From Coriobacteriales bacterium (GTDB taxonomy: Bacteria; Actinomycetota; Coriobacteriia; Coriobacteriales; CADBOM01), in assembly GCA_050946275.1 (NCBI GenBank), contig JBMNUM010000003.1:17170-81169 (forward strand): a stretch of DNA of 64,000 nt, written 5' to 3'. Made by a program: the position numbers and the translations under genes. Below the pieces are notes generated by a model that was given only the letters and a program-made list of their open reading frames with translations, searched no databases and had not been told where the DNA came from. This document shows, in pieces, positions 3,215 through 56,766 of the stretch; within the stretch, counting starts at the first letter, position 1; the number at the start of each line of letters is the position of its first letter.

Positions 3215-3342
3215 GCACCTCCCAGGCGACATGCGCGCCCGTTGCGCGGACACGCGATTCGGCCGCACCGCCGTGGTGCGGGCGCCGTCTTTGCGAAACC
3301 TGGTACGGCTGCCCTCGTCAGGGCTTCGAGAAGCACTAGCAG
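3215..3342 (-). promoter_or_regulatory. candidate ykkC-type (guanidine-I-like) riboswitch leader of sugE
   Basis: The minus strand reads GCUAGUGCUUCUCG...CAGGUUUCGCAAAG...ACCACGGCGG...GCCUGGGAGG. The blocks are in the same order as the guanidine-I blocks CUAGGGUUCCG / CUGGUCCGAGAG / ACACGGCGGGA / GCCCGGGAGA, and the last block overlaps the SD. The match is divergent and there is a roughly 38 nt insertion in the 3' part. The SugE context supports the call. Confidence 0.35.
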
Positions 3343-17014: not shown

Positions 17015-17083
17015 GCGTGTCAAATGGACAGGTCGTTTGACACGGTGCCTGTCACGCAATCGACCCGGTCACTTTCGTGACAG
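17015..17083. repeat. nested-palindrome repeat family C (left arm plus core)
   Basis: cgtgtcaaatggacaggtcgtttgacacg plus ctgtcacg...cgtgacag. This closely matches the left two-thirds of the element at 51022-51128. Confidence 0.8.
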
Positions 17084-33899: not shown

Positions 33900-33928
33900 A
33901 TGAGTCAAAGGATTGTCCTTCGACTCAT
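33900..33928. repeat. hairpin repeat family B, subtype b (ATGAGTC-AAAGGA..TCCTT-CGACTCAT)
   Basis: atgagtcaaaggattgtccttcgactcat lies directly after cbiG. Confidence 0.85.
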
Positions 33929-34026
33929 TTTCTACCGTTGCATTTGCAACCGACTGCCACGCCGCTCGTGCATATACTTATATAAATAGGCGCGAGGGTA
34001 CGAGACAGAAGGGCGGCCGGATAGTC

Positions 34027-34794
34027 ATGGCGAGCGTATCTGGTAAGTGGGAGCTGTACGATCGATTAATCGAGGGCGTACCCGCTGGCATCGGGGTTCT
34101 CGATTGCTGCCTGGGCCTGCACTGGTCGTACGTTGAGGCCGAGTGCGGGATGGGCATCAGCCACACGCTGCGCGATGGGGCCCGCGCATCGAGCGGGGCA
34201 GACCCGCGCGAGCTCGACCTCAAATCGCTGTGCGCTCTCGCCAAGTCGTGGAACTTCACCGAGGCGACGCTCGGCGTGGCGGCGCTCAACGCGTGGTACA
34301 CCCAGCCGGAGCGCATCGAGGCGCTCGGCGGATCGTGGGACGACGAAACGGAGTCCGGCAAGGGGAGCAACCCGTTCTGGTCGATGCGGGATCGATGCAC
34401 CGGCAAGAAGGTCGCGATCATAGGTCACTTCCCGAACGTGAACGCCATGGCGCAGATAGCCGACGTCACCGTGCTCGAGCGCAACTGCTCGTCGGGACTC
34501 GACACGCCCGACTCCGCGTGCGAGTACATCCTGCCCGAGCAGGACTACGTGATGATGACGGGAACGACGCTCACGAACAAGACGATGCCCCGGCTGCTCG
34601 AGCTCTCGAGCGACGCGGTCGTGGTCGTGACGGGTCCCTCGGCGATTCCCGCGCTCCCGATGGCCGAGGCAGGCGTCGACATCATCGCCGGCAGCATGGT
34701 CGCCGACCCCGAGCTGGCCGCGTGGGCAATCCGCAGCTACACGAAATCCGTCTGGCGAGGCGGCATCCGCAAGTTCTTCTTGGAGTTCGCGTAG
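34027..34794 (+). CDS. DUF4213/DUF364 (Rossmann-like, putative heavy-metal chelation) domain protein
   Basis: The N-terminal LIEGVPAGIGVLDCCLGLHWSYVEAECGMGISHT fits the DUF4213 pattern. The C-terminal KKVAIIGHFP...MTGTTLTNKT fits DUF364. Confidence 0.72.
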   Translation: MASVSGKWELYDRLIEGVPAGIGVLDCCLGLHWSYVEAECGMGISHTLRDGARASSGADPRELDLKSLCALAKSWNFTEATLGVAALNAWYTQPERIEALGGSWDDETESGKGSNPFWSMRDRCTGKKVAIIGHFPNVNAMAQIADVTVLERNCSSGLDTPDSACEYILPEQDYVMMTGTTLTNKTMPRLLELSSDAVVVVTGPSAIPALPMAEAGVDIIAGSMVADPELAAWAIRSYTKSVWRGGIRKFFLEFA

Positions 34795-35284: not shown

Positions 35285-35371
35285 GGAGAGGGATTTGGAA
35301 GAAAGGGAGGGTCGCGATCGGAAAGTTAACTTGCGTGTTTTAGGTAGTATCCGTTTAGGATGGAGGTAGAA
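35285..35371 (+). promoter_or_regulatory. conserved 5' leader of MFS cassette 1
   Basis: ggagagggatttggaagaaagggaggGtcgcGatcggaaagttAacttgcgtgttT... is almost identical to 46789-46850. It ends in a small hairpin (ATCC/GGAT) abutting the SD GGAGG. Confidence 0.55.
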
Positions 35372-36664
35372 ATGACTACTGAAGTCAACTCTGGTGCTTC
35401 TCTGCAAGTGCCGAAGATGGGCAAGGGTGCCTGGGCGGTCATGATTTCCGTCTGGATCGTCGGCATCGTGCTCGCCATCGCACAGTACAAGGCCATGGCT
35501 ACCACGACGTACATCGCCGAGGACATGGGCCTGACGGCCTCCGAGGCTGGTTGGATTTCCGGCGTTTTCACGTTCACCGGCATCATCCTGGCCTTCCCGG
35601 CTGCTAACGTTCTCAAGAAGCTCGGCCCGAAGATGTCGCTGATTCTCTCCTGCGCCTTCGCCATCGTCGGTGGCGTGATCGGCTTCTTCGCCGCTGGCTA
35701 CGTCCCGATGCTCATCTCCCGTGTCATCGAGGGTATCGGCCTCAGCTTCGTCGGTGTCGTCGGTCCTGCGACGATCGCCATGTGGTTCCCGATCGAGAAG
35801 CGCGGTCTGCCGATGGGCATTTGGTCCAACTGGCAGATGGTCGGTATCTCGATCTGCTTCTACAGCAGTGCTCCGATGACCATGGCCTGGAGCTGGCGCT
35901 CCCTGTGGCTGTTGGGCGTCGTCTGCTGCATCATCGGCCTGGTTCTGGCCGCTATCGTCGTCAAGGCTCCGCCCAAGGAGTTCAACCATGCTGACGTCCA
36001 GGACGAGGGCACCAAGCTCACCAAGGTCTTCAGCATGCGCGATGTCTGGCTGGTCGCTCTGGCCGGTCTGGCCTTCGGTCTGTCCAACTCCGTCGTCATC
36101 CAGTGGGTCGCTCCGTACTGGATCAACAACACTGGCATGGATCCCGGAATGGCCGGTAACCTCACTGGTGCTCTGTTCACGACTGAGTGCGTGTTCACCA
36201 TCATCTTCGGCTTCATCTTCAACAAGATGAAGAGCCGCAAGAAGGCCATCGTTATCGACTCCGCTCTGTACTCGGTGACCTTCCTGGTTATCTTCTCGAT
36301 GACCAACGTCCCGGCAGCTATCTTCTCGCTGTTCTTCTATGCTATCGTCGAGGCCTTCTTCTGCATGGCCATGTGGACCCTCGTCGGCCAGACCGTCACG
36401 GATCCGCGTGTCGCCGCTGGCGCGATCGCCCTCTACACGATCATGATTGACGTTGGAATGTGGCTCGGCCCGATCTTCTCCGGCATGATCCTCGACCACG
36501 CTGCCGTGGCGGCTGGCGTCGATCCCACCGGTGGTGCCGGTGCTGGCGTGCCTGGCGCGTTCTTCGGCGTCATGTGCTTCACCATCGCCGCTCAGGTCGT
36601 TGCGACCATCGCTTGGGGCCTCCTGAGGCTCTACAACGAGCAGGGCGAGAGGGTCAAGATGTAA
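35372..36664 (+). CDS. MFS transporter (paralogue 1), substrate unknown
   Basis: About 12 TM segments and an MFS loop motif (LKKLGPKMSL; EKRGLPMG). The start was chosen at the second ATG, 5 nt after GGAGG. About three-quarters of residues are identical by eye to 46879-48168. Confidence 0.85.
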   Translation: MTTEVNSGASLQVPKMGKGAWAVMISVWIVGIVLAIAQYKAMATTTYIAEDMGLTASEAGWISGVFTFTGIILAFPAANVLKKLGPKMSLILSCAFAIVGGVIGFFAAGYVPMLISRVIEGIGLSFVGVVGPATIAMWFPIEKRGLPMGIWSNWQMVGISICFYSSAPMTMAWSWRSLWLLGVVCCIIGLVLAAIVVKAPPKEFNHADVQDEGTKLTKVFSMRDVWLVALAGLAFGLSNSVVIQWVAPYWINNTGMDPGMAGNLTGALFTTECVFTIIFGFIFNKMKSRKKAIVIDSALYSVTFLVIFSMTNVPAAIFSLFFYAIVEAFFCMAMWTLVGQTVTDPRVAAGAIALYTIMIDVGMWLGPIFSGMILDHAAVAAGVDPTGGAGAGVPGAFFGVMCFTIAAQVVATIAWGLLRLYNEQGERVKM

Positions 36665-43579: not shown

Positions 43580-44482
43580 CTACGACCTCGGGCCGTACAC
43601 GTACACCTCGTGAATCTCGTGGTCGTAGCCGTCGTAGAAACCGACCGGCATGCCCTGCACGATCTTCGCGCCACGGTTGTAGAGCACGAGCATCTCGCCC
43701 GAGTCCTCATCGAAGGTCAGTCCCTCAATCTCGCCCTGGAGCTGGACGTCGTCGAGCGTCTTCGCGGGCACGACCTCCACCTCGGTTGCCCCGTCGGCGA
43801 GCTCGAAGCGGTACGCGTGGTCGGGGGCGTTCTTGTCAGCGTCGCCGTCATCGGCGGTGACGTAGTAGCCGCCATCGTGGTAGGCGATTCCCTGAATCCA
43901 CTTGGGGGCGGGGGAGAGGAGCACCTTGCCCAGGTACTCACCCGACTCGAGGTCGTAGTTGTAGATATACTCGCCGGTGTCGGTCCATGCGCACATCGAG
44001 ACGACCTTCGTGTCGGGGTTCACGCAGATGCCGCTGCACTCGTCCTGTCCGCTCTCCTTATCGAAGTTGAATGTGCGCTTGAGCTGCAGCGTGTCGCCAT
44101 CGTAGACGGCGATCTGGATGTTCGAGGCGACGCCGTCCTCGAACAGCTCCACGCCGCAGTACACCTCGTTGTCGTGCACGTCGATGTCGCCGATGTGGTT
44201 CACCTCGAGTTCGTAGCCCTTCTCGAAGGGGGAGTCGTTCGTCGCGACGAGGTTCCAGTCCTTGTCGTATTTGGAGAGCGTGGTCGAGCCGCTCACCCAG
44301 TAGCTTCCGTTCTCGGCCGCAACTCCCTGCCGGCCGTCGACCTCCACGACCTTCGCCAGCTCTCTCGACTCGTCGTTTCCGCTCTCCGCCGAACCGGCGT
44401 CCTGCGCGCAGCCTGCCAAGGGCAAGACCAGGACCAGCGAGGCGGCGACGGCGATCAATGCGTTCCTGAGTTGCTTGTTCAT
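43580..44482 (-). CDS. lipoprotein of unknown function, repetitive beta-strand (propeller-like) pattern
   Basis: The signal peptide has the lipobox LPLAGC. Short motifs of aromatic and Asp residues recur (YWVSG, VYCGVE, IAVYDG, ICVNPD, IYNYD, GIAYHDGGYYVTADDG, IEGLTFD). It is the only minus-strand gene inside the cbi locus. Confidence 0.7.
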   Translation of the reverse strand: MNKQLRNALIAVAASLVLVLPLAGCAQDAGSAESGNDESRELAKVVEVDGRQGVAAENGSYWVSGSTTLSKYDKDWNLVATNDSPFEKGYELEVNHIGDIDVHDNEVYCGVELFEDGVASNIQIAVYDGDTLQLKRTFNFDKESGQDECSGICVNPDTKVVSMCAWTDTGEYIYNYDLESGEYLGKVLLSPAPKWIQGIAYHDGGYYVTADDGDADKNAPDHAYRFELADGATEVEVVPAKTLDDVQLQGEIEGLTFDEDSGEMLVLYNRGAKIVQGMPVGFYDGYDHEIHEVYVYGPRS

Positions 44483-44593
44483 CGGGGTTTCCCTTCCATA
44501 ATTGCCTGCTGGCGCGAAGGCCGTTGGTGCAGAGGCACTCAATGTGCGCTAAAGGCATCGTACACCAGATACGGCGCTGGCATCATCCGTCAA

Positions 44594-46788: not shown

Positions 46789-46878
46789 GGAGAGGGATTT
46801 GGAAGAAAGGGAGGTTCGCTATCGGAAAGTTGACTTGCGTGTTCTAGGTAAGTGTTCCTTGCAGGAATGGAGGTAGAA
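46789..46878 (+). promoter_or_regulatory. conserved 5' leader of MFS cassette 2
   Basis: Near-identical to 35285-35346. Its SD-proximal hairpin TTCC/GGAA (46855-46867) replaces ATCC/GGAT of copy 1, so the change is compensatory. Confidence 0.55.
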
Positions 46879-48168
46879 ATGACTACAGAAGTCACTGGCT
46901 CTGGAGTCCAAGTCCCGAAGATGGGCAAGGGCGCATGGGTAATCGCGATCACCGTGTGGATCATCGGTATCGTGCTCGCCATCGCCCAGTACAAGGCCAT
47001 GGCGACGACGACGTTCATCGCCGAGGACATGGGCCTGACGGCCACCCAGGCTGGTTGGATTTCCGGTATCTTCACGTTCACCGGCATCATCCTGGCCTTC
47101 CCTGCCGCAGGTATTCTCAAGAAGCTCGGTCCGAAGATGGCCCTGATCCTCTCCACCGGCTTCGCGGTCGTCGGCGGCATCGTCGGCTTCTTCGCTCCCG
47201 GCTTCGCTCCGATGATCGCCTCCCGTATCGTCGAGGGTGTCGGCCTCGGCCTCGTCGGCGTTGTCGGCCCGGCCACCATCGCGATGTGGTTCCCGATCGA
47301 GAAGCGCGGTCTTCCGATGGGCATCTGGTCGAACTGGCAGACGGTCGGTATCTCGATCTGCTTCTTCACCTCGGTCCCGATGACCATGTCGATGGGCTGG
47401 CGCTCGCTGTGGATCATGGGCGTCATCTGCTGCGCCGTTGGTCTGATTCTGGCCGCGATTATCGTTAAGGCTCCGCCCAAGGAGTACAACCATGCCGACG
47501 TCCAGGACGACGATGCCAAGCTCTTCAAGGTCTTCGGCATGCGCGACGTCTGGCTGGTCGCCCTGGCCGGTCTGGCGTTCGGTCTCTCGAACTCCGTCGT
47601 CATCCAGTGGGTTGCCCCGTACTGGATCAACAACACCGGCATGGATCCCGGACTTGCCGCCAACATGACCGGCATCCTGTTCACCATCGAGAGTGTCTTC
47701 ACCATCGTCTGGGGTGTCGTGTTCAACAAGATGAAGTCCCGCAAGAAGGGCATCGTTACCTTCTCCGGCCTCTATGCCGTTAGCTTCATCTTCATCTTCT
47801 CCACGAGCACGGTTTCTCTTGCCTGGGCTTCGATGTTCTTCTATGCCATCGTCGAGGCGTTCTTCATCATGGCGATGTGGACGCTCGTCGGCCAGACCAC
47901 TCCCGACCCGCGCGTTGCGGCTGGCGCGATGGCCGTCTACACGATCGTGGTTGACCTCGGCATGTGGCTCGGCCCGATCTTCTCCGGCATGATCCTCGAC
48001 CACGCTGCTATCGCGGCTGGTATCGATCCCACCGGTGGTGCAGGTGCTGCCGTGCCCGGCGCGTTCCTCGGCTGCATGGCCTTCTCCGTGACCTTCCAGG
48101 TCATCGCGACGATTGCCTGGGCGGCTCTGAGGCTGTACGACGAGCAGGGCAATAGGGTCAAGATGTAG
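46879..48168 (+). CDS. MFS transporter (paralogue 2), substrate unknown
   Basis: Collinear with 35372-36664 and shares the same N-terminus MTTEV and C-terminus RLY(N/D)EQG(E/N)RVKM. Confidence 0.85.
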   Translation: MTTEVTGSGVQVPKMGKGAWVIAITVWIIGIVLAIAQYKAMATTTFIAEDMGLTATQAGWISGIFTFTGIILAFPAAGILKKLGPKMALILSTGFAVVGGIVGFFAPGFAPMIASRIVEGVGLGLVGVVGPATIAMWFPIEKRGLPMGIWSNWQTVGISICFFTSVPMTMSMGWRSLWIMGVICCAVGLILAAIIVKAPPKEYNHADVQDDDAKLFKVFGMRDVWLVALAGLAFGLSNSVVIQWVAPYWINNTGMDPGLAANMTGILFTIESVFTIVWGVVFNKMKSRKKGIVTFSGLYAVSFIFIFSTSTVSLAWASMFFYAIVEAFFIMAMWTLVGQTTPDPRVAAGAMAVYTIVVDLGMWLGPIFSGMILDHAAIAAGIDPTGGAGAAVPGAFLGCMAFSVTFQVIATIAWAALRLYDEQGNRVKM

Positions 48169-48238: not shown

Positions 48239-48275
48239 GCTCCGGCTCCGCTTCGGCGGGGCCGGAGCTTTTCTC
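48239..48275 (+). terminator. Rho-independent terminator of MFS cassette 2
   Basis: gctccggctccgc-ttcg-gcggggccggagc is followed by ttttctc. Confidence 0.75.
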
Positions 48276-48293
48276 ATGCCCTCGCGCGCTCGG

Positions 48294-48299
48294 TATAAT
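48294..48299 (+). promoter_or_regulatory. putative -10 box (GGTATAAT) for cbiC
   Basis: A perfect TATAAT overlaps the first bases of the family B hairpin. Confidence 0.4.
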
Positions 48300-48351: not shown

Positions 48352-48999
48352 ATGGCCGACGTGGAGCGGGTGCTTCCCGCCGACATCGAGCGGCGGAGCA
48401 TGGAGATCATCGACGCCGAGCTTGCCTCGCGCGGCATCGTGCTCGATGTGCGCAATGCGGCCGTCGTCAAGCGCGTCATCCACACCTCGGCGGACTTCGA
48501 CTACGCGGGTAACCTGCGCTTCTCGCCCGGTGCCGTCGATGCGGGCGTCACCGCGCTCAAGGCCGGCGCGACCATCCTCACCGACACGAACATGGCCCGC
48601 GCGGGCGTGAGCAAGCCGGCGCTCGCCAAGCTCGGTGGTGACGTCGTCTGCTACATGGCCGACGAGAACGTCGCCCGCACCGCCCGCGAGCAGGGCACAA
48701 CGCGCGCCGTCGCCTCCATGGAAAAGGCCGCCCGCACACTCGATGCGCCTGTCGTCGCCATCGGGAATGCGCCCACCGCGCTCATCCATCTCGTCGAGCT
48801 CATCGACGCCGGCGCCATCGCGCCGCGGCTCGTCATCGGCGTCCCCGTGGGGTTCGTGAACGTCGAGGCGAGCAAGGAGCTCATGATGGAGCGCGCCGAC
48901 GTACCGTGGATCGTCGCGCGCGGCCGCAAGGGCGGCTCGAACATAGCGGCCGCCATCTGCAACGCGCTGCTCTACGAGGCCACGGGCCGCCAGTTGTGA
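48352..48999 (+). CDS. cbiC: cobalt-precorrin-8 methylmutase
   Basis: VIHTSADFDY, ILTDTNM, AIGNAPTAL, PVGFV and GGSNIAAA are hallmark CbiC/CobH blocks. Confidence 0.92.
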   Translation: MADVERVLPADIERRSMEIIDAELASRGIVLDVRNAAVVKRVIHTSADFDYAGNLRFSPGAVDAGVTALKAGATILTDTNMARAGVSKPALAKLGGDVVCYMADENVARTAREQGTTRAVASMEKAARTLDAPVVAIGNAPTALIHLVELIDAGAIAPRLVIGVPVGFVNVEASKELMMERADVPWIVARGRKGGSNIAAAICNALLYEATGRQL

Positions 49000-49109: not shown

Positions 49110-50156
49110 ATGACCCCAGAGGTTCCAAGCGATATCAGGAGGCGCAAGCGCACGCGGTACACGGTCGCGTTCGTTGTGCTCGCCGTGCTGCTGCTCGTGT
49201 TCCTGGTGCTCAACATCTGCCTCGGCAGCGTGGGCGTGCCGCTCCCGGACGTGCTCGCGGCGCTCTCGGGCAGCTCGGCGGACGAGCTCTCCCGTGACAT
49301 CGTGCTCAACATGCGCTTCCCGCGCGCCGTCGCCGCCATCATCCTCGGCGGGGGCCTGTCGCTCGCCGGCTACCTGCTCCAGACGTTCTTTCACAACCCC
49401 ATCGCCGGCCCGTTCGTGCTCGGCATCTCGTCGGGCGCGAAGCTCATCGTCGCCATCGTGATGGTGGTCTTCCTCGGCGCGGGCATCCACATCGGCTCGG
49501 TTGTCATGATCCTCGCCGCGTTTGCGGGTGCGATGATGTCCATGGGCTTCGTGCTGCTCGTCTCCAAGCGCATCCCGGGCATGGCCATGCTCATCGTCGC
49601 CGGCATCATGATCGGTTACATCTGCTCGGCCATCACCGACTTCGTCATCACCTTCGCGGACGACTCCGACATCGTGAACCTACACAACTGGTCGCTCGGC
49701 AGCTTCTCGGGCATCACGTGGGGCAACGTCGGCGTGATGGCCGTCGTCATCCTCGCCGCCACGGTGTGCGTGTTCCTGCTGGCCAAGCCCATCTCGGCCT
49801 ATCAGCTTGGCGAGAACTACGCGGAGAGCCTCGGCGTTAACATCAAGCGCTTCCGCGCGCTGCTCGTGCTGCTGTCTAGCCTGCTCTCCGCCTGCGTGAC
49901 GGCGTTCGCCGGCCCCATCTCGTTCGTGGGTATCGCCGTGCCGCAGCTCGTGAAGAACATCTTCAAGACCTCCCGACCGCTGCTCATGGTCCCCGCGTGC
50001 TTCGTGGGCGGAGGCGTCTTCTGTCTGTTCTGCGACCTGCTCGCGCGCGTGGCCTTCGCGCCCACGGAGCTCTCCATCTCGACCGTGACGGCGATCTTCG
50101 GCGCACCCGTCGTGATCTGGGTGCTGTTGCGCCGCAAGAAGGGGAGGGTGGAGTAG
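49110..50156 (+). CDS. FecCD-family ABC permease (BtuC / iron-siderophore/cobalamin type)
   Basis: 348 aa with about 9-10 TM segments. It shows the FecCD signature region and a C-terminal GAPVVIWVLLRR. Confidence 0.9.
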   Translation: MTPEVPSDIRRRKRTRYTVAFVVLAVLLLVFLVLNICLGSVGVPLPDVLAALSGSSADELSRDIVLNMRFPRAVAAIILGGGLSLAGYLLQTFFHNPIAGPFVLGISSGAKLIVAIVMVVFLGAGIHIGSVVMILAAFAGAMMSMGFVLLVSKRIPGMAMLIVAGIMIGYICSAITDFVITFADDSDIVNLHNWSLGSFSGITWGNVGVMAVVILAATVCVFLLAKPISAYQLGENYAESLGVNIKRFRALLVLLSSLLSACVTAFAGPISFVGIAVPQLVKNIFKTSRPLLMVPACFVGGGVFCLFCDLLARVAFAPTELSISTVTAIFGAPVVIWVLLRRKKGRVE

Positions 50157-51014
50157 ATGTCCGAGCGCTTCCCGACACCCGGGCTGGAACGCTCCCCCGA
50201 GGACCGTTCCAATTGGAACGCTCCCCCGAGGAGCGTTCCAGAACCCTACTTCCGCACCGAGGGCCTGGCCGTGGGCTACGATGGCAAGCCGCTCATCTCC
50301 GGCATCGAGATGAACGTCGAGCGAGGCGAGATCCTCACGCTCATCGGACCCAACGGCGGCGGCAAGTCGACGATCCTGAAAAGCATCACCGGGCAGCTCG
50401 AGCCCATCGCCGGCACCGTGTTCCTCGGCGGGCGCGATATGCGGGCGATCGACCGCAAGGAGCTCGCGCGCGAGATGGCCGTCATGCTCACGGAGCGCAT
50501 CAGCCCCGAGCTCATGACGTGCGCGGATGTGGTCGGGATGGGTCGCTATCCCTACACGGGCAGCCTCGGCATCCTCGCGGAGGAGGATCACGCGATCGTG
50601 CTCGAATCGATGGAGGCCGTGCACATCGCCGACCTCGCGGAGCGCGACTTCACCGCCATCAGCGACGGCCAGCGCCAGCGTGTCATGCTTGCGCGCGCCA
50701 TCTGCCAGCAGCCCGAGCTCATGATCCTCGACGAGCCCACGTCGTATCTCGACATCCGCTACAAGCTCGAGCTGCTCGCGACGCTGCTCGACATGTCGCG
50801 CGACCGCGGCCTCACCGTCATCATGTCGCTGCACGAGATCGACCTCGCGCAGCATGTCTCCGACAAGGTCATGTGCGTCGCCGAGGGTCGCATCGACCGT
50901 TTCGGCACGCCCGACGAGGTGTTCACCCCGGGCTACATCGACCGCCTCTACGGTCTCACGGTCGGCTCTTACGACGAGGCGACCGGTCACGTCGAGCTCC
51001 CCATCCGGAGATGA
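50157..51014 (+). CDS. ABC ATPase of the FecE/BtuD type with a repeat-encoded N-terminal extension
   Basis: Walker A GPNGGGKST, the signature-like SDGQRQR and Walker B LMILDEPTSYLD are present. The ATG abuts the permease stop. Codons 10-28 are encoded by two family A palindromes. Confidence 0.88.
   Translation: MSERFPTPGLERSPEDRSNWNAPPRSVPEPYFRTEGLAVGYDGKPLISGIEMNVERGEILTLIGPNGGGKSTILKSITGQLEPIAGTVFLGGRDMRAIDRKELAREMAVMLTERISPELMTCADVVGMGRYPYTGSLGILAEEDHAIVLESMEAVHIADLAERDFTAISDGQRQRVMLARAICQQPELMILDEPTSYLDIRYKLELLATLLDMSRDRGLTVIMSLHEIDLAQHVSDKVMCVAEGRIDRFGTPDEVFTPGYIDRLYGLTVGSYDEATGHVELPIRR
50184..50241. repeat. two tandem REP-like family A palindromes inside the coding sequence
   Basis: ctggaacgctcccccgaggaccgttccaa plus ttggaacgctcccccgaggagcgttccag. 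Confidence 0.85.
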
Positions 51015-51021
51015 GCCGACC

Positions 51022-51128
51022 ATGTCAAATGCGTGTCAAATGGACAGGTCATTTGACACGCTGTCACGGAAGTCGCCCGGTCACTTGCGTGACAGTAGCC
51101 GTGTCAAGTGACCTGTCCATTTGACACG
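51022..51128. repeat. nested-palindrome repeat family C (complete copy)
   Basis: The arm cgtgtcaaatggacaggtcatttgacacg, the core ctgtcacg...cgtgacag, and the inverted arm cgtgtcaagtgacctgtccatttgacacg. Each arm is itself a hairpin (gtgtcaaat/atttgacac). Confidence 0.85.
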
Positions 51129-51159
51129 GGTCCGTTTGTCTACTCGTGGTACGATGGGT

Positions 51160-51330
51160 TCGCATACAGGTAATGGCTAGGCGGAGCCGCCTGCTCGCAG
51201 GCGGGGCCGGACCGGATGTCCGGCAAGGGGAATGCGGGTGAGAATCCCGCGCTATACCAGTAACCGTAAACGCCGGCGCTGCTGCGCATGGCAAAGTCGG
51301 AATGCCTTTCCGCTGAAACGAGACGCCCTG
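51160..51330 (+). ncRNA. cobalamin (B12) riboswitch
   Basis: CAAGGGGAAUGCGGGUGAGAAUCCCGC (51223-51250) matches the conserved AAGGGAA..GGUGAnAAUCC core. AAGUCGGAAUGCC (51294-51306) resembles the B12 box rAGYCMGgAgaCCkGC. It lies upstream of the cbiK-like operon. The boundaries are approximate. Confidence 0.6.
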
Positions 51331-51583
51331 GGAGATTGTATGGATCTGCAGAGAATCACATCGCCATAGCCTTGCCCATGCGGCCCGTGCCCAGCGCACT
51401 GTCGCCTGGAAGACTCGTCCTCCTGTCGATATGCGCGCTCCAGCGGTTGCGGGTTCGTCATGGAGTCATGTGGAGCGCGGCGTCCCGGCGGGCGTTGCGG
51501 TCGTCGGCGTTTGCCCGGGTGGGGACGCCGTCATCGAGTTGCCCGGATGCGAGGCGTGCGGGCGGAAAGGGAGTGGTTGTTCC

Positions 51584-52516
51584 ATGAAGAAGAAGTTCCT
51601 TGCAGTGCTGGTGGCGGCGCTTGCCGCGGCCCTGTGCGCGTTCGCGCTCGCCGGATGCGGTGGGGCGTCGGACGAGGCCGCTCCCGCCGACGACGCTGCC
51701 GACCAGGCCGCCGTGGCCCCGGCTGGCGATCAGGAGATCATCGTCGTGAGCTTCGGCACGAGCTATCCCGAGACCCGCGCCGCCACGATCGAGGCGGTCG
51801 AGAACTCCATCGCAGCCGCGTTCCCCGAGTGGAGCGTGCAGCGCGCCTTCACCGCGCAGACCATCATCGACAAGGTCGCCGAGAAGGAGGGCGTCGAGAT
51901 CATGAACTTCGAGCAGGCCGTCGATGCCGCCGCCGAGGCAGGCGTCACGAAGCTCGTCGTCCAGCCGACGCACCTCATGAACGGCTACGAGTACAACGAC
52001 GTCAAGGATGCCCTCGACAAGGCCGCGCCGCGCTTCGACCAGGTCGTGCTCGGCGATCCGCTGCTCGGCACCGACGCCGACCTCTCCGCCGTCGCCGAGG
52101 CCATGGTCGAGGCCACCAAGCAGTATGACGACGGCCAGACCGCCATCGTCTGGATGGGCCACGGCACCGAGGCCGACTCCAACGGCGTGTACGCCAAGAT
52201 GCAGGAGGTCATGACCGAGGCCGGCCACGACAACTACTACATCGGCACGGTCGAGGCCACCCCGACGATCGATGACATCCTGACCGCCATCGACGGCAAG
52301 GGCTACACGAAGGTCGTCCTGCGTCCGATGATGGTCGTCGCGGGCGACCACGCCACCAACGACATGGCCGACCCGGAGGATCCCGAGTCCTGGTACAGCC
52401 AGTTCAAGGCAGCCGGTTACGAGGTCGAGGCCGTGCTCGAGGGACTGGGCCAGATTCCGGCCATCCAGGACCTGTACGTCGCCCACGCCCAGGCCGCCAT
52501 CGACAGCCTCCAGTAG
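51584..52516 (+). CDS. cbiK: CbiK-type sirohydrochlorin cobaltochelatase homologue with lipoprotein signal peptide (exported)
   Basis: MKKKFLAVLVAALAAALCAFALAGC is a signal peptide with a lipobox. It is followed by an Ala/Asp/Pro linker and then the CbiK fold blocks (VVSFGTSY, VQPTHLMNGYEY, WMGHGTE, PMMVVAGDHA). Confidence 0.85.
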   Translation: MKKKFLAVLVAALAAALCAFALAGCGGASDEAAPADDAADQAAVAPAGDQEIIVVSFGTSYPETRAATIEAVENSIAAAFPEWSVQRAFTAQTIIDKVAEKEGVEIMNFEQAVDAAAEAGVTKLVVQPTHLMNGYEYNDVKDALDKAAPRFDQVVLGDPLLGTDADLSAVAEAMVEATKQYDDGQTAIVWMGHGTEADSNGVYAKMQEVMTEAGHDNYYIGTVEATPTIDDILTAIDGKGYTKVVLRPMMVVAGDHATNDMADPEDPESWYSQFKAAGYEVEAVLEGLGQIPAIQDLYVAHAQAAIDSLQ

Positions 52517-52576
52517 GCTACAATGTCAACTGCGGGCGGAATGCAACGTTCCGCCCGCAAACGACATGATGGTGAG

Positions 52577-52605
52577 ATGAGTCAGAGGGCTTTCCTCCGA
52601 CTCAT
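52577..52605. repeat. hairpin repeat family B, subtype b
   Basis: atgagtcagagggctttcctccgactcat. Confidence 0.8.
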
Positions 52606-52611
52606 TTTCAG

Positions 52612-52644
52612 GTGAGTCGATGACGGAGATCGTCATCGGCTCAT
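52612..52644. repeat. hairpin repeat family B, subtype a-like
   Basis: gtgagtcgatgacggagatcgtcatcggctcat has two mismatches between the arms. Confidence 0.7.
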
Positions 52645-52664
52645 CCCGCTGGCAAGGAGTGCTC

Positions 52665-53705
52665 ATGGAGAAACGAATCAGCTGGTTGAAGGTGATGCTC
52701 GCCGCCGCGCTGTGCGCGTTCGTGATCGCGTGCATGCCGGCCATCGCGCTGGCCGAGGACGAGGCGGCGACGGATGCCGAGCCGGGTGTCGCGAAGGCCG
52801 ACGACTACGGAGAGCGCGAGGAAGTCGGTGCGGACAACCTCGTCCCGATCACGCCCGACATGCTCCCGGACGGCACGTACGACCTCACGGCCGACACCGA
52901 CTCGTCGATGTTCAAGATAACGAAGTGCGAGGTGACCGTCGCCAACGGCGAGATGACCGCGGTCTTCACGCTCGGCGGCACCGGCTACGAGCGCCTCTAC
53001 CGAGGCGAGGGCAAGGATGCCCTCAAGGCCGACGCGTCCGAGTACGCTGAGGCGGTCGAGGATGCCGACGGCGCCTACACCTACACCATGAGCATCCCCG
53101 CGATCAACTACCGCATGGACGTCAGCGCGTTCAGCAAGCGCAAGCAGCTTTGGTATGACCATACCGTCGTGATCGACCCGGCGGGTCTGCCCGAGGGCAC
53201 CATCATGATGGGCGCGTACGCTCCCGAGGCCGGCGACCCGTTCAAGGCCAAGAGCGCCTACACCAAGCTCGAGGACGGCATCTACACGATGGAGGTCGAG
53301 CTCGCCGGCGGCACCGGCAAGGCGTCGATCACCTCTCCGGCCTATGTGAAGGTCGAGGACGGCCATCCGGTCGTCTCGCTCGAGTGGAGCAGCCAGAACT
53401 ACGACTACATGATCCTCAACGGCGAGAAGTACCTGCCGGTCGAGCGGGATAAGAAGAACTACTTCGAGCTGCCGATCATGGTGTTCGACGAGCCGATGGA
53501 CGTCATCGCCGACACGACGGCCATGAGCCAGCCGCACGAGATCGCCTATCAGCTCACCTTCAAGGAGGACACGGCCGTCAACGCCTCCCAGGGCATCCAT
53601 GTCCCGTCCAAGGTGGTGTTCCTGGTCATCGTCGTCTTCGCCGCCGTCATCCTCCTGCTCTTCCGCTCGAGGATGCGTTCTGCCAGTGGCAAGGCCAGAC
53701 GCTGA
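52665..53705 (+). CDS. secreted, C-terminally membrane-anchored protein with two internal beta-rich repeats; function unknown
   Basis: The signal peptide is MEKRISWLKVMLAAALCAFVIACMPAIALA. Two DGxY-initiated repeats are present (DGTYDLTADTDSSMFKITKCEVTVANGEM... and DGIYTMEVELAGGTGKASITSPAYVKVEDGH...). The C-terminal TM segment VVFLVIVVFAAVILLLF is followed by a basic tail. The SD AAGGAG lies at 52654. Confidence 0.7.
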   Translation: MEKRISWLKVMLAAALCAFVIACMPAIALAEDEAATDAEPGVAKADDYGEREEVGADNLVPITPDMLPDGTYDLTADTDSSMFKITKCEVTVANGEMTAVFTLGGTGYERLYRGEGKDALKADASEYAEAVEDADGAYTYTMSIPAINYRMDVSAFSKRKQLWYDHTVVIDPAGLPEGTIMMGAYAPEAGDPFKAKSAYTKLEDGIYTMEVELAGGTGKASITSPAYVKVEDGHPVVSLEWSSQNYDYMILNGEKYLPVERDKKNYFELPIMVFDEPMDVIADTTAMSQPHEIAYQLTFKEDTAVNASQGIHVPSKVVFLVIVVFAAVILLLFRSRMRSASGKARR

Positions 53706-54934
53706 TGCCGATCGTCCGGACAAGGACAAACGCGAGGGGGCACGCGCGCCGCACGCTGGTGGCGCGCGTGCCCTTGCTCTTGTGCGCCCTCGCGCTGGCC
53801 GCGCTGCTCGCCGGGTTTGCCACCGGGTGCTCTGCCGGCGGTGCGCAGGGTGAGGGGGCCGGCCACGACTGGGACGTGAGTCCCTCGCTCGTGCTCGTCG
53901 AGGTGGAGGAGCCGGAGTATGCGACAGGCTTCGCCATCGGCAGCTACGAGGGCGGCTACGAGCTCATCGACATCGTGGGGGAGGGCCGCTTCCTCGTGGT
54001 GCCCGAGGGCGCTGCCGTGCCGGACGACCTCGCTGAAGACGTTGTCGTCCTCCGGCGGCCGCTCGACCGCATCTACCTCGTCGCTTCTGCGACCATGGAC
54101 ATGTTCCGCTCGCTCGACGCGATCGACGCCATCCGCCTCTCCGGCACGAAGCAGGGCGACTGGCACATCGCCGAGGCGGCCGATGCCATGGCCTCCGGCG
54201 CGATCGTCTATGCGGGCAAGTACAACATGCCCGATTACGAGCGCATCCTCGCCGAGGAATGCGACCTGGCGGTCGAGTCGACGATGATCTACCACAACCC
54301 CGAGGTGAAGGAGGCGCTCGAGGGCTACGGCATCCCCGTGCTCGTCGATCAGTCGAGCTACGAGAACGAGCCGCTCGGGCGCATCGAGTGGGTGAAGGTC
54401 TACGGTGCGCTGCTCGGCAAGAAGTCCGAGGCCGATGCCGTCTTCGAGGAGCAGCGGGCGCTGTTCGACGCGGTGGTCGCCGACTCGCAGGACATGGCGG
54501 AGCGCAAGTCGGTCGCGTTCTTCTACATCACGGCCAACGGGAGCGTGAACGTTCGCAAGGCCGACGACTACGTGCCCAAGATGATCGAGCTCGCGGGCGG
54601 TTCGTACGCGCTGACGGAGCGCGGCGACCCCGACTCGGCCTCGAGCACGGTCGGCATGCAGATGGAGGAATTCTACGCGGCGGCCAAGGATGCGGACTAC
54701 ATCCTCTACAACTCGACGATTGCCGGCGAGGTTGAATCGCTCGACGAGCTGCTCGACAAGTCGGAGTTCCTCGGCAGGTTCAAGGCCGTGTCCGACGGCA
54801 ACGTCTGGTGCGTCACGCAGAACATGTACCAGGATTCGATGGAGCTCGGCGCCTTCATCTCCGACGTCCACAAGATTCTCGTCGACCCCGCCACCCCCGA
54901 CGACCAGCTCACCTACATGAAGCGCCTGACCTGA
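53705..54934 (+). CDS. ABC substrate-binding lipoprotein, Peripla_BP_2 (BtuF/FhuD-type) family
   Basis: It has a signal peptide with lipobox FATGC and the typical RIYLVASATMDM...YAGKYNMPDYERIL... pattern. The ATG overlaps the preceding stop. Confidence 0.85.
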   Translation: MPIVRTRTNARGHARRTLVARVPLLLCALALAALLAGFATGCSAGGAQGEGAGHDWDVSPSLVLVEVEEPEYATGFAIGSYEGGYELIDIVGEGRFLVVPEGAAVPDDLAEDVVVLRRPLDRIYLVASATMDMFRSLDAIDAIRLSGTKQGDWHIAEAADAMASGAIVYAGKYNMPDYERILAEECDLAVESTMIYHNPEVKEALEGYGIPVLVDQSSYENEPLGRIEWVKVYGALLGKKSEADAVFEEQRALFDAVVADSQDMAERKSVAFFYITANGSVNVRKADDYVPKMIELAGGSYALTERGDPDSASSTVGMQMEEFYAAAKDADYILYNSTIAGEVESLDELLDKSEFLGRFKAVSDGNVWCVTQNMYQDSMELGAFISDVHKILVDPATPDDQLTYMKRLT

Positions 54935-54969
54935 CGAACACATCAGGCGTTTTCGTCGGGCCTCGGTTG

Positions 54970-56766
54970 CTATCCGAGGATGTCGGAGAGCTCGAGCCAC
55001 TCGAGCTCGAGGTCGTCGAGGCGCTCGCGCAGGGCCGCTATCTCGTTCTCGCAGCGGATGAGCTCCTCGTAGTCCGTGGGGTCGGCGTCGCGCAGGGCCT
55101 GCTCGGCTTGCGCGAGCTTCTCCTGCGTCGTCTCGATCTTGCGCTCGGCCGACGAGAGCTTCTTGCGCGCGGCCTGGCGCTCGGCGTTCGTGAGCCCCGG
55201 CGCGTCCTTGGCCTCGCGCTTCCCGCCATCGCCCGTCGGCACGCCGAACTGGCTTTCCGGCTCGCGTTGCGCCGCTATCCGCAGGTACTCGTCCACGCCA
55301 CCTGGCAGGTGGCGGACCTTCCCGCCGACGAGCGCGTACTGGTTGTCCGTGACGCGCTCCATGAGATGCCGGTCGTGCGTCACGAGGATGAGCGTGCCCG
55401 GCCACGTGTCGAGCACGCTCTCGATCTGCCCGAGCATGTCGACGTCCATGTCGTTGCCGGGCTCGTCGAGGATGAGGACGTTGGATCCCTCGAGCAGCGT
55501 GAGCATGAGCTGCAGGCGCCGCTTCTGCCCTCCCGAAAGATGCGAGACGGGCAGCTGGAAGTGCGCGCGGTTGAAGCCGAGCCGCTCGAGCAGCTGCGAG
55601 GACGAGAGCTCCTTGCCGTCGATCGTGTAGTGCGTCTTGTAGCGCGTGAGCACCTCGCGCACCTCGTAGTCCCCGAACTCGTCGAGCTCCTCGAGCCGCT
55701 GCGAGAGCACCGAGATCTTGACGGTCTTGCCGATCTTCACGTAGCCGCTGTCCGGCTCGACCGCGCCCGTGATGAGCTTGAGCAGCGTCGTCTTGCCCGC
55801 GCCGTTGTCGCCGAGGATGCCCACGCGGTCGCCCGGCGCGATGATCCACGAGACGTCGTCGAGCACGCGCTTGCCCTCGAACGACTTGCTCACGTTCACG
55901 AGGTCGACGGCCTGCTTGCCGAGCCGTGCGACGGCGGCGCGCTTCAGCTCGAGCGTGTCGCGCATGGGCGGCACGTCGGCGATGAGGGCCTCTGCGGCCT
56001 CGACGTGGAATTTGGGTTTCGTCGCTCGCGCACGTGCGCCGCGCGACAGCCAGGCGAGCTCGCGGCGCAGCAGGTTCTGGCGCTTCTGCTCGGCCACGCG
56101 CGCGGCCTCCTCGCGCTCGACGCGCTGCAGCACGTAGGCCGAGTACCCGCCCTCGAACGGCTCGACCACGCCGTCGTGCACCTCCCACATGGATGTGCAC
56201 ACCTCGTCGAGGAACCATCGGTCGTGCGTGACGACGAGCAGCGCGCCCCCGTTGCCCGGCCAGCGCCGGTTGAGGTGTCCGGCCAGCCATGAGATGGTCG
56301 CGATGTCGAGATGGTTCGTCGGCTCGTCGAGCATGAGGATCTCGTCGGTGCCGATGAGGACGCGCGCGAGGTCGACGCGCCGGCGCTCGCCGCCCGAGAG
56401 CGTGTCGATGCGCGAGTCGAGCGGCATCGTGCCCACGAGGTGGTCGAGGATGTCTCGGATGCGCGGGTCGGAGGCCCAGACGTACTCCGGCGTGTCCCCG
56501 AAGATGGCACCGACGATCGTGTCGTCCTCGGCGAAGGCGTCGTCTTGCGCGAGCATGCCGATGGCGAAGTCGTTGCGCTTGAAAACGCGGCCCGCGTCGG
56601 GCTCGACGGTCTGGGCGAGGATGCCGAGCAGCGATGACTTGCCGTCGCCGTTGCGCCCCACGATGCCGACGCGGTCCCCCTCGTCGACGCCGAGCGTCAC
56701 CCCGTCGAACAGCGTCTTCACCGCATATTCGAGATGTATGTCCTCGCATCCGAGCGCGAACGCCAT
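54970..56766 (-). CDS. ABC-F family ATPase (Uup/EttA-like, two NBDs, C-terminal coiled coil)
   Basis: Two Walker A sites (GRNGDGKSS, GDNGAGKTT) and two LSGG signatures are present, with no TM domain. The tail is a coiled coil. Confidence 0.9.
   Translation of the reverse strand: MAFALGCEDIHLEYAVKTLFDGVTLGVDEGDRVGIVGRNGDGKSSLLGILAQTVEPDAGRVFKRNDFAIGMLAQDDAFAEDDTIVGAIFGDTPEYVWASDPRIRDILDHLVGTMPLDSRIDTLSGGERRRVDLARVLIGTDEILMLDEPTNHLDIATISWLAGHLNRRWPGNGGALLVVTHDRWFLDEVCTSMWEVHDGVVEPFEGGYSAYVLQRVEREEAARVAEQKRQNLLRRELAWLSRGARARATKPKFHVEAAEALIADVPPMRDTLELKRAAVARLGKQAVDLVNVSKSFEGKRVLDDVSWIIAPGDRVGILGDNGAGKTTLLKLITGAVEPDSGYVKIGKTVKISVLSQRLEELDEFGDYEVREVLTRYKTHYTIDGKELSSSQLLERLGFNRAHFQLPVSHLSGGQKRRLQLMLTLLEGSNVLILDEPGNDMDVDMLGQIESVLDTWPGTLILVTHDRHLMERVTDNQYALVGGKVRHLPGGVDEYLRIAAQREPESQFGVPTGDGGKREAKDAPGLTNAERQAARKKLSSAERKIETTQEKLAQAEQALRDADPTDYEELIRCENEIAALRERLDDLELEWLELSDILG

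Follow-up and report, generated by a model that had tools for sequence, protein, structure and literature searches.

Exported CbiK-fold, predicted NEAT-fold and IsdE-like proteins encoded behind a cobalamin riboswitch: a candidate uptake system for cobalt tetrapyrroles

Gene content of the locus

A 64,000-nucleotide stretch of the genome of a Coriobacteriales bacterium (assembly GCA_050946275.1, contig JBMNUM010000003.1, positions 17,170 to 81,169 of the forward strand), hereafter the window, contains a cobalamin riboswitch followed by three genes whose products all carry export signals. These products are a CbiK-fold (class II chelatase) lipoprotein, a membrane-anchored protein predicted to contain two NEAT domains, and a substrate-binding lipoprotein resembling Lmo2184 and IsdE. 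A permease and an ATP-binding cassette (ABC) ATPase are encoded just upstream of the riboswitch (Table 1). The five genes belong to a putative uptake system that is widespread in gut Gram-positive bacteria and apparently undescribed. The G+C content at third codon positions (GC3) is 0.90-0.94 across the switch-led genes, the permease, the ATPase and cbiC, so all of these can be regarded as real genes.

Table 1. Features of the riboswitch-led unit and of the adjoining importer genes in the window
Feature	Position	Strand	Basis
cbiC	48352..48999	+	Pfam CbiC, 262 bits; first gene of the permease/ATPase unit; closes the cbi cluster
FecCD-family permease	49110..50156	+	Pfam FecCD, 269 bits; upstream of the riboswitch
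ABC ATPase	50157..51014	+	Pfam ABC_tran; synteny in related loci; upstream of the riboswitch
Candidate extended -10 promoter element TGGTACGAT	51147..51155	+	Block ACGTGGTACGATGG common to the window and L082
Cobalamin riboswitch leader	51160..51385	+	Rfam core 51210-51315; conserved block reaching to both sides
Exported CbiK-fold (class II chelatase) lipoprotein (gene 1)	51584..52516	+	Pfam CbiK PF06180, 261.3 bits against 26.2
Predicted tandem NEAT-fold surface protein (gene 2)	52665..53705	+	Signal peptide, two beta-sandwich repeats, C-terminal transmembrane anchor
Class-III substrate-binding lipoprotein, IsdE/Lmo2184-like (gene 3)	53705..54934	+	Pfam Peripla_BP_2, E 9.5e-29
Terminator-like hairpin closing the three-gene unit	54930..54947	+	Consensus scan

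Riboswitch leader and transcription units

An initial annotation of the sequence described a riboswitch-like leader ahead of three genes for exported proteins, and an aptamer of the cobalamin clan is indeed recognised there above the Rfam threshold. RF01689 (AdoCbl-II) scores 44.2 bits at 51210-51315 (+) against a gathering cut-off of 36.5, with E-values of 2.4e-7 in the first scan and 3.3e-8 in a 9-kb scan. The model named in that annotation for positions 51100-51600, RF00174, is not the best one; it belongs to the same clan as RF01689 (CL00101), and an overlapping weaker match from this clan was suppressed in the Rfam scan. The predicted fold of the leader is no better than that of shuffled sequences (z 0.24). 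Between the aptamer and gene 1 there are 269 nt.

A related Coriobacteriales contig (L082), whose proteins are 70-83% identical to those of the window, carries an orthologous leader with an RF01689 match of 39.6 bits. Positions 51145-51385 of the window are near base-for-base identical to this leader, whereas upstream of the common block ACGTGGTACGATGG the two sequences are unrelated. Since TGGTACGAT is conserved and resembles an extended -10 element, the riboswitch-led unit probably has its own promoter at this site, which was not among the promoters listed by a generic scan. The gene after the unit, for an ABC-F ATPase (54970-56766), is convergent, and together with the hairpin at the end of gene 3 this limits the switch-led unit to exactly three genes.

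The placement of the permease and the ATPase (49110-51014) upstream of the riboswitch, in the cbiC unit, agrees with the initial annotation and with their Pfam assignments. A consensus scan finds a promoter-like site at 48271-48299 ahead of cbiC and a terminator-like hairpin at 48250-48268, and no riboswitch was found for the cbiC-permease-ATPase unit even at relaxed Rfam thresholds.

The class of aptamer differs between lineages. The Coriobacteriales leaders (window and L082) are short class-II-like aptamers matched by RF01689, and the Treponema copies (L066, 5734-5860; L080, 464-593) are likewise short and class-II-like, with 43-46 bits to RF00174, while the Clostridia have full-length RF00174 aptamers of 70-113 bits. 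This split hints at different selectivity for cobalamin forms.

A near-perfect palindromic element (51031-51128; stem of about 45 bp, RNA fold -74.4 kcal/mol, z -10.9) separates the stop codon of the ATPase gene from the riboswitch promoter; it is absent from that spot in L082. A related arm occurs at 17018-17042, downstream of an Fe-hydrogenase gene. The element looks like an insertion of the miniature inverted-repeat transposable element (MITE) or repetitive extragenic palindromic (REP) type, and it may serve as terminator or insulator of the cbiC-btuCD transcript.

An exported chelatase homologue

The product of gene 1 was initially described as a CbiK homologue with a lipobox and an Ala/Asp/Pro linker, and this is borne out by its Pfam score and by its N-terminus, MKKKFLAVLVAALAAALCAFALAGC, in which MKKK and a hydrophobic stretch are followed by the lipobox LAGC and an Ala/Asp/Pro-rich linker. 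In the PDB it matches CbiK (1qgo, 3.9e-44), FetB (9b86, 5.5e-41) and CbiK(P) (2xvx, 1.2e-37). Residues H193, E224 and H256 align to the metal-binding and catalytic H145, E175 and H207 of Salmonella enterica CbiK, and this His/Glu/His site is invariant in all 74 of 74 exported members of the family. By residue counting, His96, the axial haem ligand at the subunit interface of CbiK(P) (2xvx), corresponds to Asn in the window protein.

Export is a conserved property of the family. The CbiK-like proteins of 67 of the 80 related loci described below have a lipobox, and the full arrangement of MKKK, hydrophobic stretch, L(A/S/T)GC and low-complexity linker is kept in 67-73 of 80 homologues. The protein is named sirohydrochlorin cobaltochelatase by NCBI, and its score against the NCBIfam CbiK equivalog (NF047852) is 212.9 bits, below the cut-off of 400. 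Labelling such exported lipoproteins as the biosynthetic cobaltochelatase is a systematic mis-annotation that can inflate the number of predicted de novo B12 producers.

No second CbiK or CbiX was found in the 64-kb window by tblastn, and a hidden Markov model of the CbiK family detected no signal-less homologue in 82 related loci, for which the sequence is limited to 7 kb on either side. Given this coverage, the missing cytoplasmic chelatase is suggestive rather than decisive.

Two loci carry a fused double chelatase (L006, 5161-6912; L010, 5113-6870), in which a single lipoprotein of 583-585 amino acids contains two tandem CbiK domains.

A tandem NEAT-fold surface protein

Gene 2 starts at the methionine of MEKR (52665) rather than at 52620. 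Its product gave nothing significant in searches with Pfam, NCBIfam and PDB phmmer, or with a 96-sequence profile against the PDB. In an AlphaFold (AF2) model built with 96 homologues (mean predicted local distance difference test score, pLDDT, 86), the signal peptide and a C-terminal transmembrane helix flank two beta-sandwich domains. When the model was compared with the PDB by Foldseek, IsdB and IsdH-N2N3 ranked first (E 1e-7 to 1e-5), followed by the single NEAT domains IsdX1, IsdX2-N5 and IsdH-N3, with target TM-scores of 0.62-0.66 and a probability of 1.00; these single domains share 7-17% identity with the query. The Pfam NEAT model (PF05031) scores the window protein at 16.3 bits, below the gathering score of 32.8, and gives sub-threshold or weak matches to 27 of 32 homologues (best E 1.7e-9); one relative (P0243) has an additional bona fide NEAT domain of 55 bits. 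The two repeats are homologous to each other (hhalign probability 97.5%, E 2.4e-11). By its modelled structure, therefore, the gene 2 product is a tandem NEAT fold, one that becomes visible through structure and homologue matches and not through the window sequence. The initial description of a two-repeat protein with a signal peptide and a C-terminal transmembrane anchor was right in these respects; its label "unannotatable" no longer applies.

Repeat 1 keeps the motifs SSMF and K..WY, and repeat 2 the motifs GG..P, WSS.NYDYM and AMS.PHE..Y. In the last strand of repeat 2, H291-x-x-x-Y295 is invariant or near-invariant, and the counterpart in repeat 1 is K160-x-x-x-Y164. The HxxxY motif recalls the haem-ligating YxxxY of NEAT domains, but alignment of each repeat to the verified IsdA NEAT sequence with hhalign gave no significant register to IsdA Y166/Y170, so that a role of the motif in ligand binding is offered as a lead.

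All of 79 NEAT-like proteins inspected have an export signal, and most are anchored, by a C-terminal transmembrane helix (27) or an N-terminal lipobox (42); 10 have neither anchor. Fusion of the tandem NEAT-like module to Peripla_BP_2 was found in 5 of 5 tested forms of 640-740 amino acids, and at one locus (L036) such a fusion gene lies behind a cobalamin riboswitch of 113 bits. These natural fusions are Rosetta-stone evidence that the NEAT-like protein and the binding protein would work in direct contact.

There are also giant relatives (P0241, P0242 and P0357) of 1,965-2,538 amino acids, in which five to nine stretches match the two-domain unit; this suggests high-capacity surface receptors.

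Binding lipoprotein and importer

Gene 3, whose start overlaps the stop of gene 2, encodes a lipoprotein with the lipobox FATGC. A profile of its family (31 members) matches Lmo2184 best in the PDB (5joq, 2.6e-10), followed by IsdE (2q8p, 0.013), and the NCBIfam IsdE model matches 22 of the 31 members; BtuF was matched neither by the sequence of the gene 3 product nor by the 31-member profile in searches of the PDB. The binding protein is thus closer in sequence to the haem-type proteins IsdE and Lmo2184 than to BtuF. Lmo2184 is the binding protein of the Isd-like locus of Listeria. The earlier assignment as a binding lipoprotein therefore stands, but its likeness to BtuF gives way to one with IsdE. 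An assignment of the ligand by fold was tried and rejected, as siderophore, haem and B12 binders, including Vibrio cholerae BtuF, all score alike at about 1e-12 against the AF2 model (pLDDT 86).

The best NCBIfam match of the permease is BtuC (215 bits, under the cut-off of 334), and those of the ATPase are FecE and haem and corrinoid ATPases, all under their cut-offs. A permease orthologue directly follows the binding protein in at least 70 related loci, and the permease and ATPase are the predicted cognate importer of the binding lipoprotein. The NEAT-like protein, the IsdE-like lipoprotein, the FecCD permease and the ATPase therefore have the composition of an Isd relay. The window proteins miss the curated thresholds for NEAT, IsdE, BtuC, BtuF and biosynthetic CbiK, and are accordingly relatives, not members, of those families.

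Conservation of the operon

One genome per species was scanned, and at least 579 loci were found to encode relatives of gene 2; the best 80 of these were analysed. A profile search of 1.84 billion representatives assigned 2,595 clusters at 50% identity to the NEAT-like family. By these counts the module is very common, and its control by a B12 riboswitch is consistent. The 80 loci come mostly from Lachnospiraceae, Ruminococcus, Oscillospiraceae and other Clostridia, with two from Treponema. In 78 of them the order is CbiK-like protein, NEAT-like protein, binding protein, permease and ATPase on one strand, as far as the contig permits.

The orthologous trios do not sit in haem or iron regulons devoid of B12 switches. 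An Rfam scan took in 44 related loci, two of which end less than 410 nt upstream and could not be evaluated; in 40 of the 41 evaluable loci an RF00174 match on the same strand precedes the cbiK-like gene by about 170-220 nt. The two riboswitch-less scanned loci are atypical, L057 having a lone NEAT-like gene and L007 cbiK and NEAT-like genes without a transporter. Outside Coriobacteriales the switch precedes the whole set of five genes, and in some cases cbi ring genes too. That only the extracellular components are gated by B12, as first proposed, holds for the window and L082; elsewhere the importer follows the switch as well. Because a permease and ATPase ahead of the switch are confined to these two loci, the split layout is best read as a Coriobacteriales-specific rearrangement of a five-gene operon and not as a design principle.

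Ring-synthesis genes are found within 7 kb of the operon in 28 of the 80 loci, often directly after the ATPase gene, on the same strand and without a second riboswitch. The L082 copy, like that of the window, is also placed in a cobamide gene cluster. The adjoining clusters contain cbiD, three or more methylases, cbiG, cbiJ-cbiET, cbiA and cbiC. As their unlabelled genes prove to be methylases and CbiJ-CbiET fusions, the only thing that these clusters seem to lack is a cytoplasmic chelatase.

At one locus (L012, 3079-4846) a group II intron (RF02001, RF01998, RF00029) is located a few hundred bases upstream of the operon riboswitch.

Corrinoid salvage as the favoured function

The B12-sensing leader, the three exported and tethered proteins, the Isd-like parts and the coupling to riboswitch, importer and cobamide genes make it likely that the module imports some cobalt tetrapyrrole of the cobamide pathway when B12 is low. 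We favour corrinoid salvage by an Isd-like relay under B12 control, with a probability of roughly 0.45; that the ligand is a corrinoid, which way it is passed on and what the chelatase does are what we infer. The initial annotation had suggested a B12-gated surface relay for corrinoids or other tetrapyrroles, an idea that, for a still putative ligand, is strongly backed by the synteny, the riboswitches and the fusions.

In such a relay, scarcity of cobalamin would cause the riboswitch to permit synthesis of the three membrane-tethered proteins. The tandem NEAT-fold protein and the CbiK-fold lipoprotein would then capture corrinoids outside the membrane, either complete cobamides or incomplete ones (cobinamide, cobyric or cobyrinic acids). 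The HxxxY motif of repeat 2 and the SSMF motif of repeat 1 could form binding pockets, and the chelatase cleft, with its intact His/Glu/His site, might hold a cobalt tetrapyrrole. The corrinoid would be handed to the IsdE-like lipoprotein, with the NEAT-like protein as the predicted donor, and the loaded lipoprotein would dock on the FecCD-type permease and ATPase for import.

Corrinoid salvage would conform to what generally holds for FecCD importers under riboswitch control, and to the plentiful supply of corrinoids in gut habitats. The retention of a lipobox or C-terminal transmembrane anchor in 69 of 79 NEAT-like proteins is in keeping with it, as is BtuC being the nearest named relative of the permease. 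Corrinoids are abundant and contested in the gut, where surface capture proteins are known in Bacteroides and the Gram-positive case has been called "entirely uncharacterized" (2026 review, PMC13616437).

Several points weigh against corrinoid salvage. The known relatives of the extracellular trio (NEAT; IsdE/Lmo2184; FetB/CbiK(P)) bind haem or porphyrin, not B12. We know of no NEAT domain that binds a corrinoid, a larger and non-planar ligand. A fold and consensus scan of the expression platform (51386-51583) revealed no convincing terminator or element sequestering the ribosome-binding site. A mere binding role leaves the invariant catalytic triad poorly explained, and it does not explain either why adjacent complete ring-synthesis clusters show no chelatase other than the exported one.

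Alternative functions

The last two points would be accounted for if the exported CbiK were a working cobaltochelatase that metalates sirohydrochlorin or precorrin-2, scavenged or self-secreted, at the cell surface. The NEAT-like and IsdE-like proteins would then bind the planar cobalt isobacteriochlorin, the ABC transporter would import it, and CbiL and later enzymes would continue the pathway. This is possible, if doubtful. Beyond the intact triad and the absence of a signal-less CbiK or CbiX from the window and the related loci, it draws on the fused double-CbiK lipoproteins, on the position of the operon at the head of or within complete ring-synthesis clusters, and on the resemblance of the binding proteins to haem binders, which take planar metallo-tetrapyrroles. 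An exported CbiK homologue, FetB, is a real chelatase that makes Mn-protoporphyrin IX (PMC13065792), and it is also the best chelatase homologue of Porphyromonas gingivalis, which lacks precorrin-2 synthesis. In Desulfovibrio a B12 element is followed by cbiK-cbiL-btuCDF, and no cobalt transporter is known (PMC545781). Moreover, the operon is carried by clades listed as salvagers of precorrin-2, uroporphyrinogen III (UroIII) or porphobilinogen (PBG), namely Ruminococcus flavefaciens, Treponema denticola, T. pedis, T. putidum, Roseburia intestinalis and 23 "Lachnospiraceae bacterium" entries (PMC6461909, Table S10).

This overlap is at the level of clades, not genomes, and the same clades are simply common gut Firmicutes. 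A supply of sirohydrochlorin or precorrin-2 outside cells is hypothetical, and at the surface neither this precursor nor free Co2+ would be plentiful. Conserved basic residues that could suit an octa-carboxylate ligand are few in the NEAT-like protein, and an extracytoplasmic biosynthetic step has a low prior. A cytoplasmic chelatase could lie elsewhere in the operon-bearing genomes; D. vulgaris reportedly has one.

Acquisition of haem, porphyrin or iron in the manner of Isd or Iht, with the NEAT-like protein taking haem, the CbiK-like protein removing or exchanging its metal, the ABC transporter importing haem or iron, and a riboswitch that is incidental or regulates for some unrelated reason, is improbable. 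Its appeal is that the relatives of all three extracellular proteins bind haem (IsdB, IsdH and IsdX1; Lmo2184 and IsdE; FetB/IhtB and CbiK(P)). It is at odds with the riboswitch found throughout Clostridia and Treponema as well as in the window and L082, and with the embedding of the operon in cobamide clusters, as haem cannot feed corrin synthesis. At the window locus, domain annotation of the neighbouring proteins revealed no sortase (sortase B included) and no haem oxygenase, the canonical YxxxY of NEAT domains appears to be replaced by HxxxY or KxxxY, and the haem ligand of CbiK(P) is replaced by Asn.

Uptake of cobalt ions is less probable still. Here the exported CbiK would be an extracellular cobalt metallochaperone, and the ABC transporter would import Co2+ or a small cobalt chelate, taking the place that cbiMNQO has beside cbiK in other cbi operons. 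The metal site of CbiK is intact, the cbi clusters examined showed no genes of the cbiMNQO type, and cobalt transporters are commonly found under B12 riboswitches (PMC545781). This reading leaves unexplained, however, why a tandem tetrapyrrole-receptor fold should be fused to a binding protein. FecCD-type permeases with class-III binding proteins also carry bulky chelates, not bare ions.

That gene 1 merely encodes the cytoplasmic biosynthetic enzyme with a mis-called start, beside an ordinary BtuFCD system and an unrelated hypothetical gene, as its NCBI name and its position in a cbi cluster might suggest, is scarcely credible in view of the conserved lipoprotein signal and linker, the absence of an alternative start ahead of the conserved domain, a score far under the CbiK equivalog cut-off, and a "hypothetical" gene that is syntenic in nearly all loci and fused to the binding protein in some genomes.

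Comparison with known systems

In its parts list the module is the same as Isd (IsdB/H/A/C, IsdE and IsdF of Staphylococcus aureus; Hbp1/Hbp2 and Lmo2184 of Listeria): a tandem NEAT-fold surface protein, an IsdE/Lmo2184-type lipoprotein and a FecCD permease with its ATPase are encoded together, and the relay logic is backed by the fusions of NEAT-like and binding proteins. It differs in being under a cobalamin riboswitch instead of iron/Fur and in being embedded in cobamide clusters. Its NEAT domains are highly diverged, as their low Pfam score and the apparent loss of YxxxY indicate, and they are anchored by a transmembrane helix or lipobox and not by sortase and LPXTG. It lacks an IsdG/I haem oxygenase and has the additional exported chelatase.

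Two systems share the exported chelatase. CbiK(P) of Desulfovibrio vulgaris is likewise an exported CbiK with an intact metal site, encoded beside a FecCD-type importer under a B12 riboswitch, in a locus that has been read as combining a biosynthetic gene with a transporter (PMC545781); this locus is Gram-negative and periplasmic and has no NEAT-like protein. IhtABCDE of P. gingivalis has a surface CbiK-fold lipoprotein (IhtB/FetB) together with a binding protein, permease and ATPase, but uses an outer-membrane TonB-dependent receptor where the module has the NEAT-like protein. The iht operon is unresponsive to iron or haem starvation. Iht was studied only for haem, iron and Mn-porphyrin, and no link to a riboswitch is made in the accessible literature.

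The same functional logic is seen in the B12-riboswitch-controlled relay of Bacteroides thetaiotaomicron, in which the surface lipoproteins BtuG, BtuH, BtuJ and BtuK pass corrinoids to BtuB and BtuFCD (PMC13616437). The folds are unrelated, outer-membrane machinery is involved, and B12 binding was demonstrated experimentally, whereas for the module it is predicted. No DUF4465/BtuJ domain or other Btu accessory Pfam family was found in the window proteins or in 32 homologues at E-values up to 1. With BtuFCD of the Escherichia coli type the module shares a FecCD permease (best match BtuC), an ATPase, a class-III binding protein and riboswitch control; it departs from this type in having no sequence match to BtuF in the PDB, NCBIfam scores that are all under the equivalog cut-offs, and two additional conserved surface proteins.

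Riboswitch-controlled corrinoid import and NEAT relays are each known already. The initial annotation knew of no described trio of this composition, and none was found in the searchable literature, in which no paper joins NEAT or IsdE-type proteins with cobalamin riboswitches (earlier mention in subscription papers is possible). The cbiK-cbiL-btuCDF locus of Desulfovibrio with its B12 element is nevertheless a partial precedent (PMC545781).

Biological significance

Competition for corrinoids shapes gut, rumen and oral communities, and the machinery for capturing them is understood only in Bacteroidota. The module unites two folds, NEAT and the exported class II chelatase, that are not known to have been linked to cobamides. 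Should it bind corrinoids, it would be a Gram-positive counterpart of BtuG/H/J and would add a new class of NEAT ligand.

If the chelatase works outside the cell, this would bear on how "precorrin-2 salvagers" feed their ring synthesis, on the purpose of exported CbiK(P), IhtB and FetB, and on cobalt supply. It is conceivable, and we suggest it tentatively, that cobalt insertion, the first committed step of anaerobic B12 synthesis, is performed outside the cytoplasm by a lipoprotein chelatase and that the diverged NEAT/IsdE-like relay imports the product. Extracytoplasmic chelation of this kind would provide the uptake route of "tetrapyrrole precursor salvagers" (R. flavefaciens, oral and rumen Treponema, many Lachnospiraceae and P. 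gingivalis). It would also couple cobalt acquisition to biosynthesis and give NEAT domains a non-haem ligand.

Cobamide genes and other features of the window

The operon is preceded in the window by a 20-kb anaerobic cbi cluster (30866-51014) that includes CbiD, CbiG, a DUF364 protein, a major facilitator superfamily (MFS) transporter, a TP_methylase, CbiJ, CbiA, an aminotransferase, CobQ, a second MFS transporter and CbiC. The DUF364/DUF4213 gene (33913-34794, +), annotated as "putative heavy-metal chelation", lies between cbiG and an MFS gene and may have a bearing on how cobalt is handled in this cluster, which lacks a cytoplasmic CbiK or CbiX. The two MFS_1 transporters (35360-36664 and 46852-48168, +) were considered as a conserved part of the module and rejected, since they are absent next to it in the 80 related loci.

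A predicted lipoprotein of 320 amino acids without a Pfam match is encoded between the aminotransferase gene and cobQ (43580-44542, -). Farther away, a guanidine-III riboswitch match at 3279-3339 (-) is barely over the Rfam threshold, at 37.9 against 36 bits.

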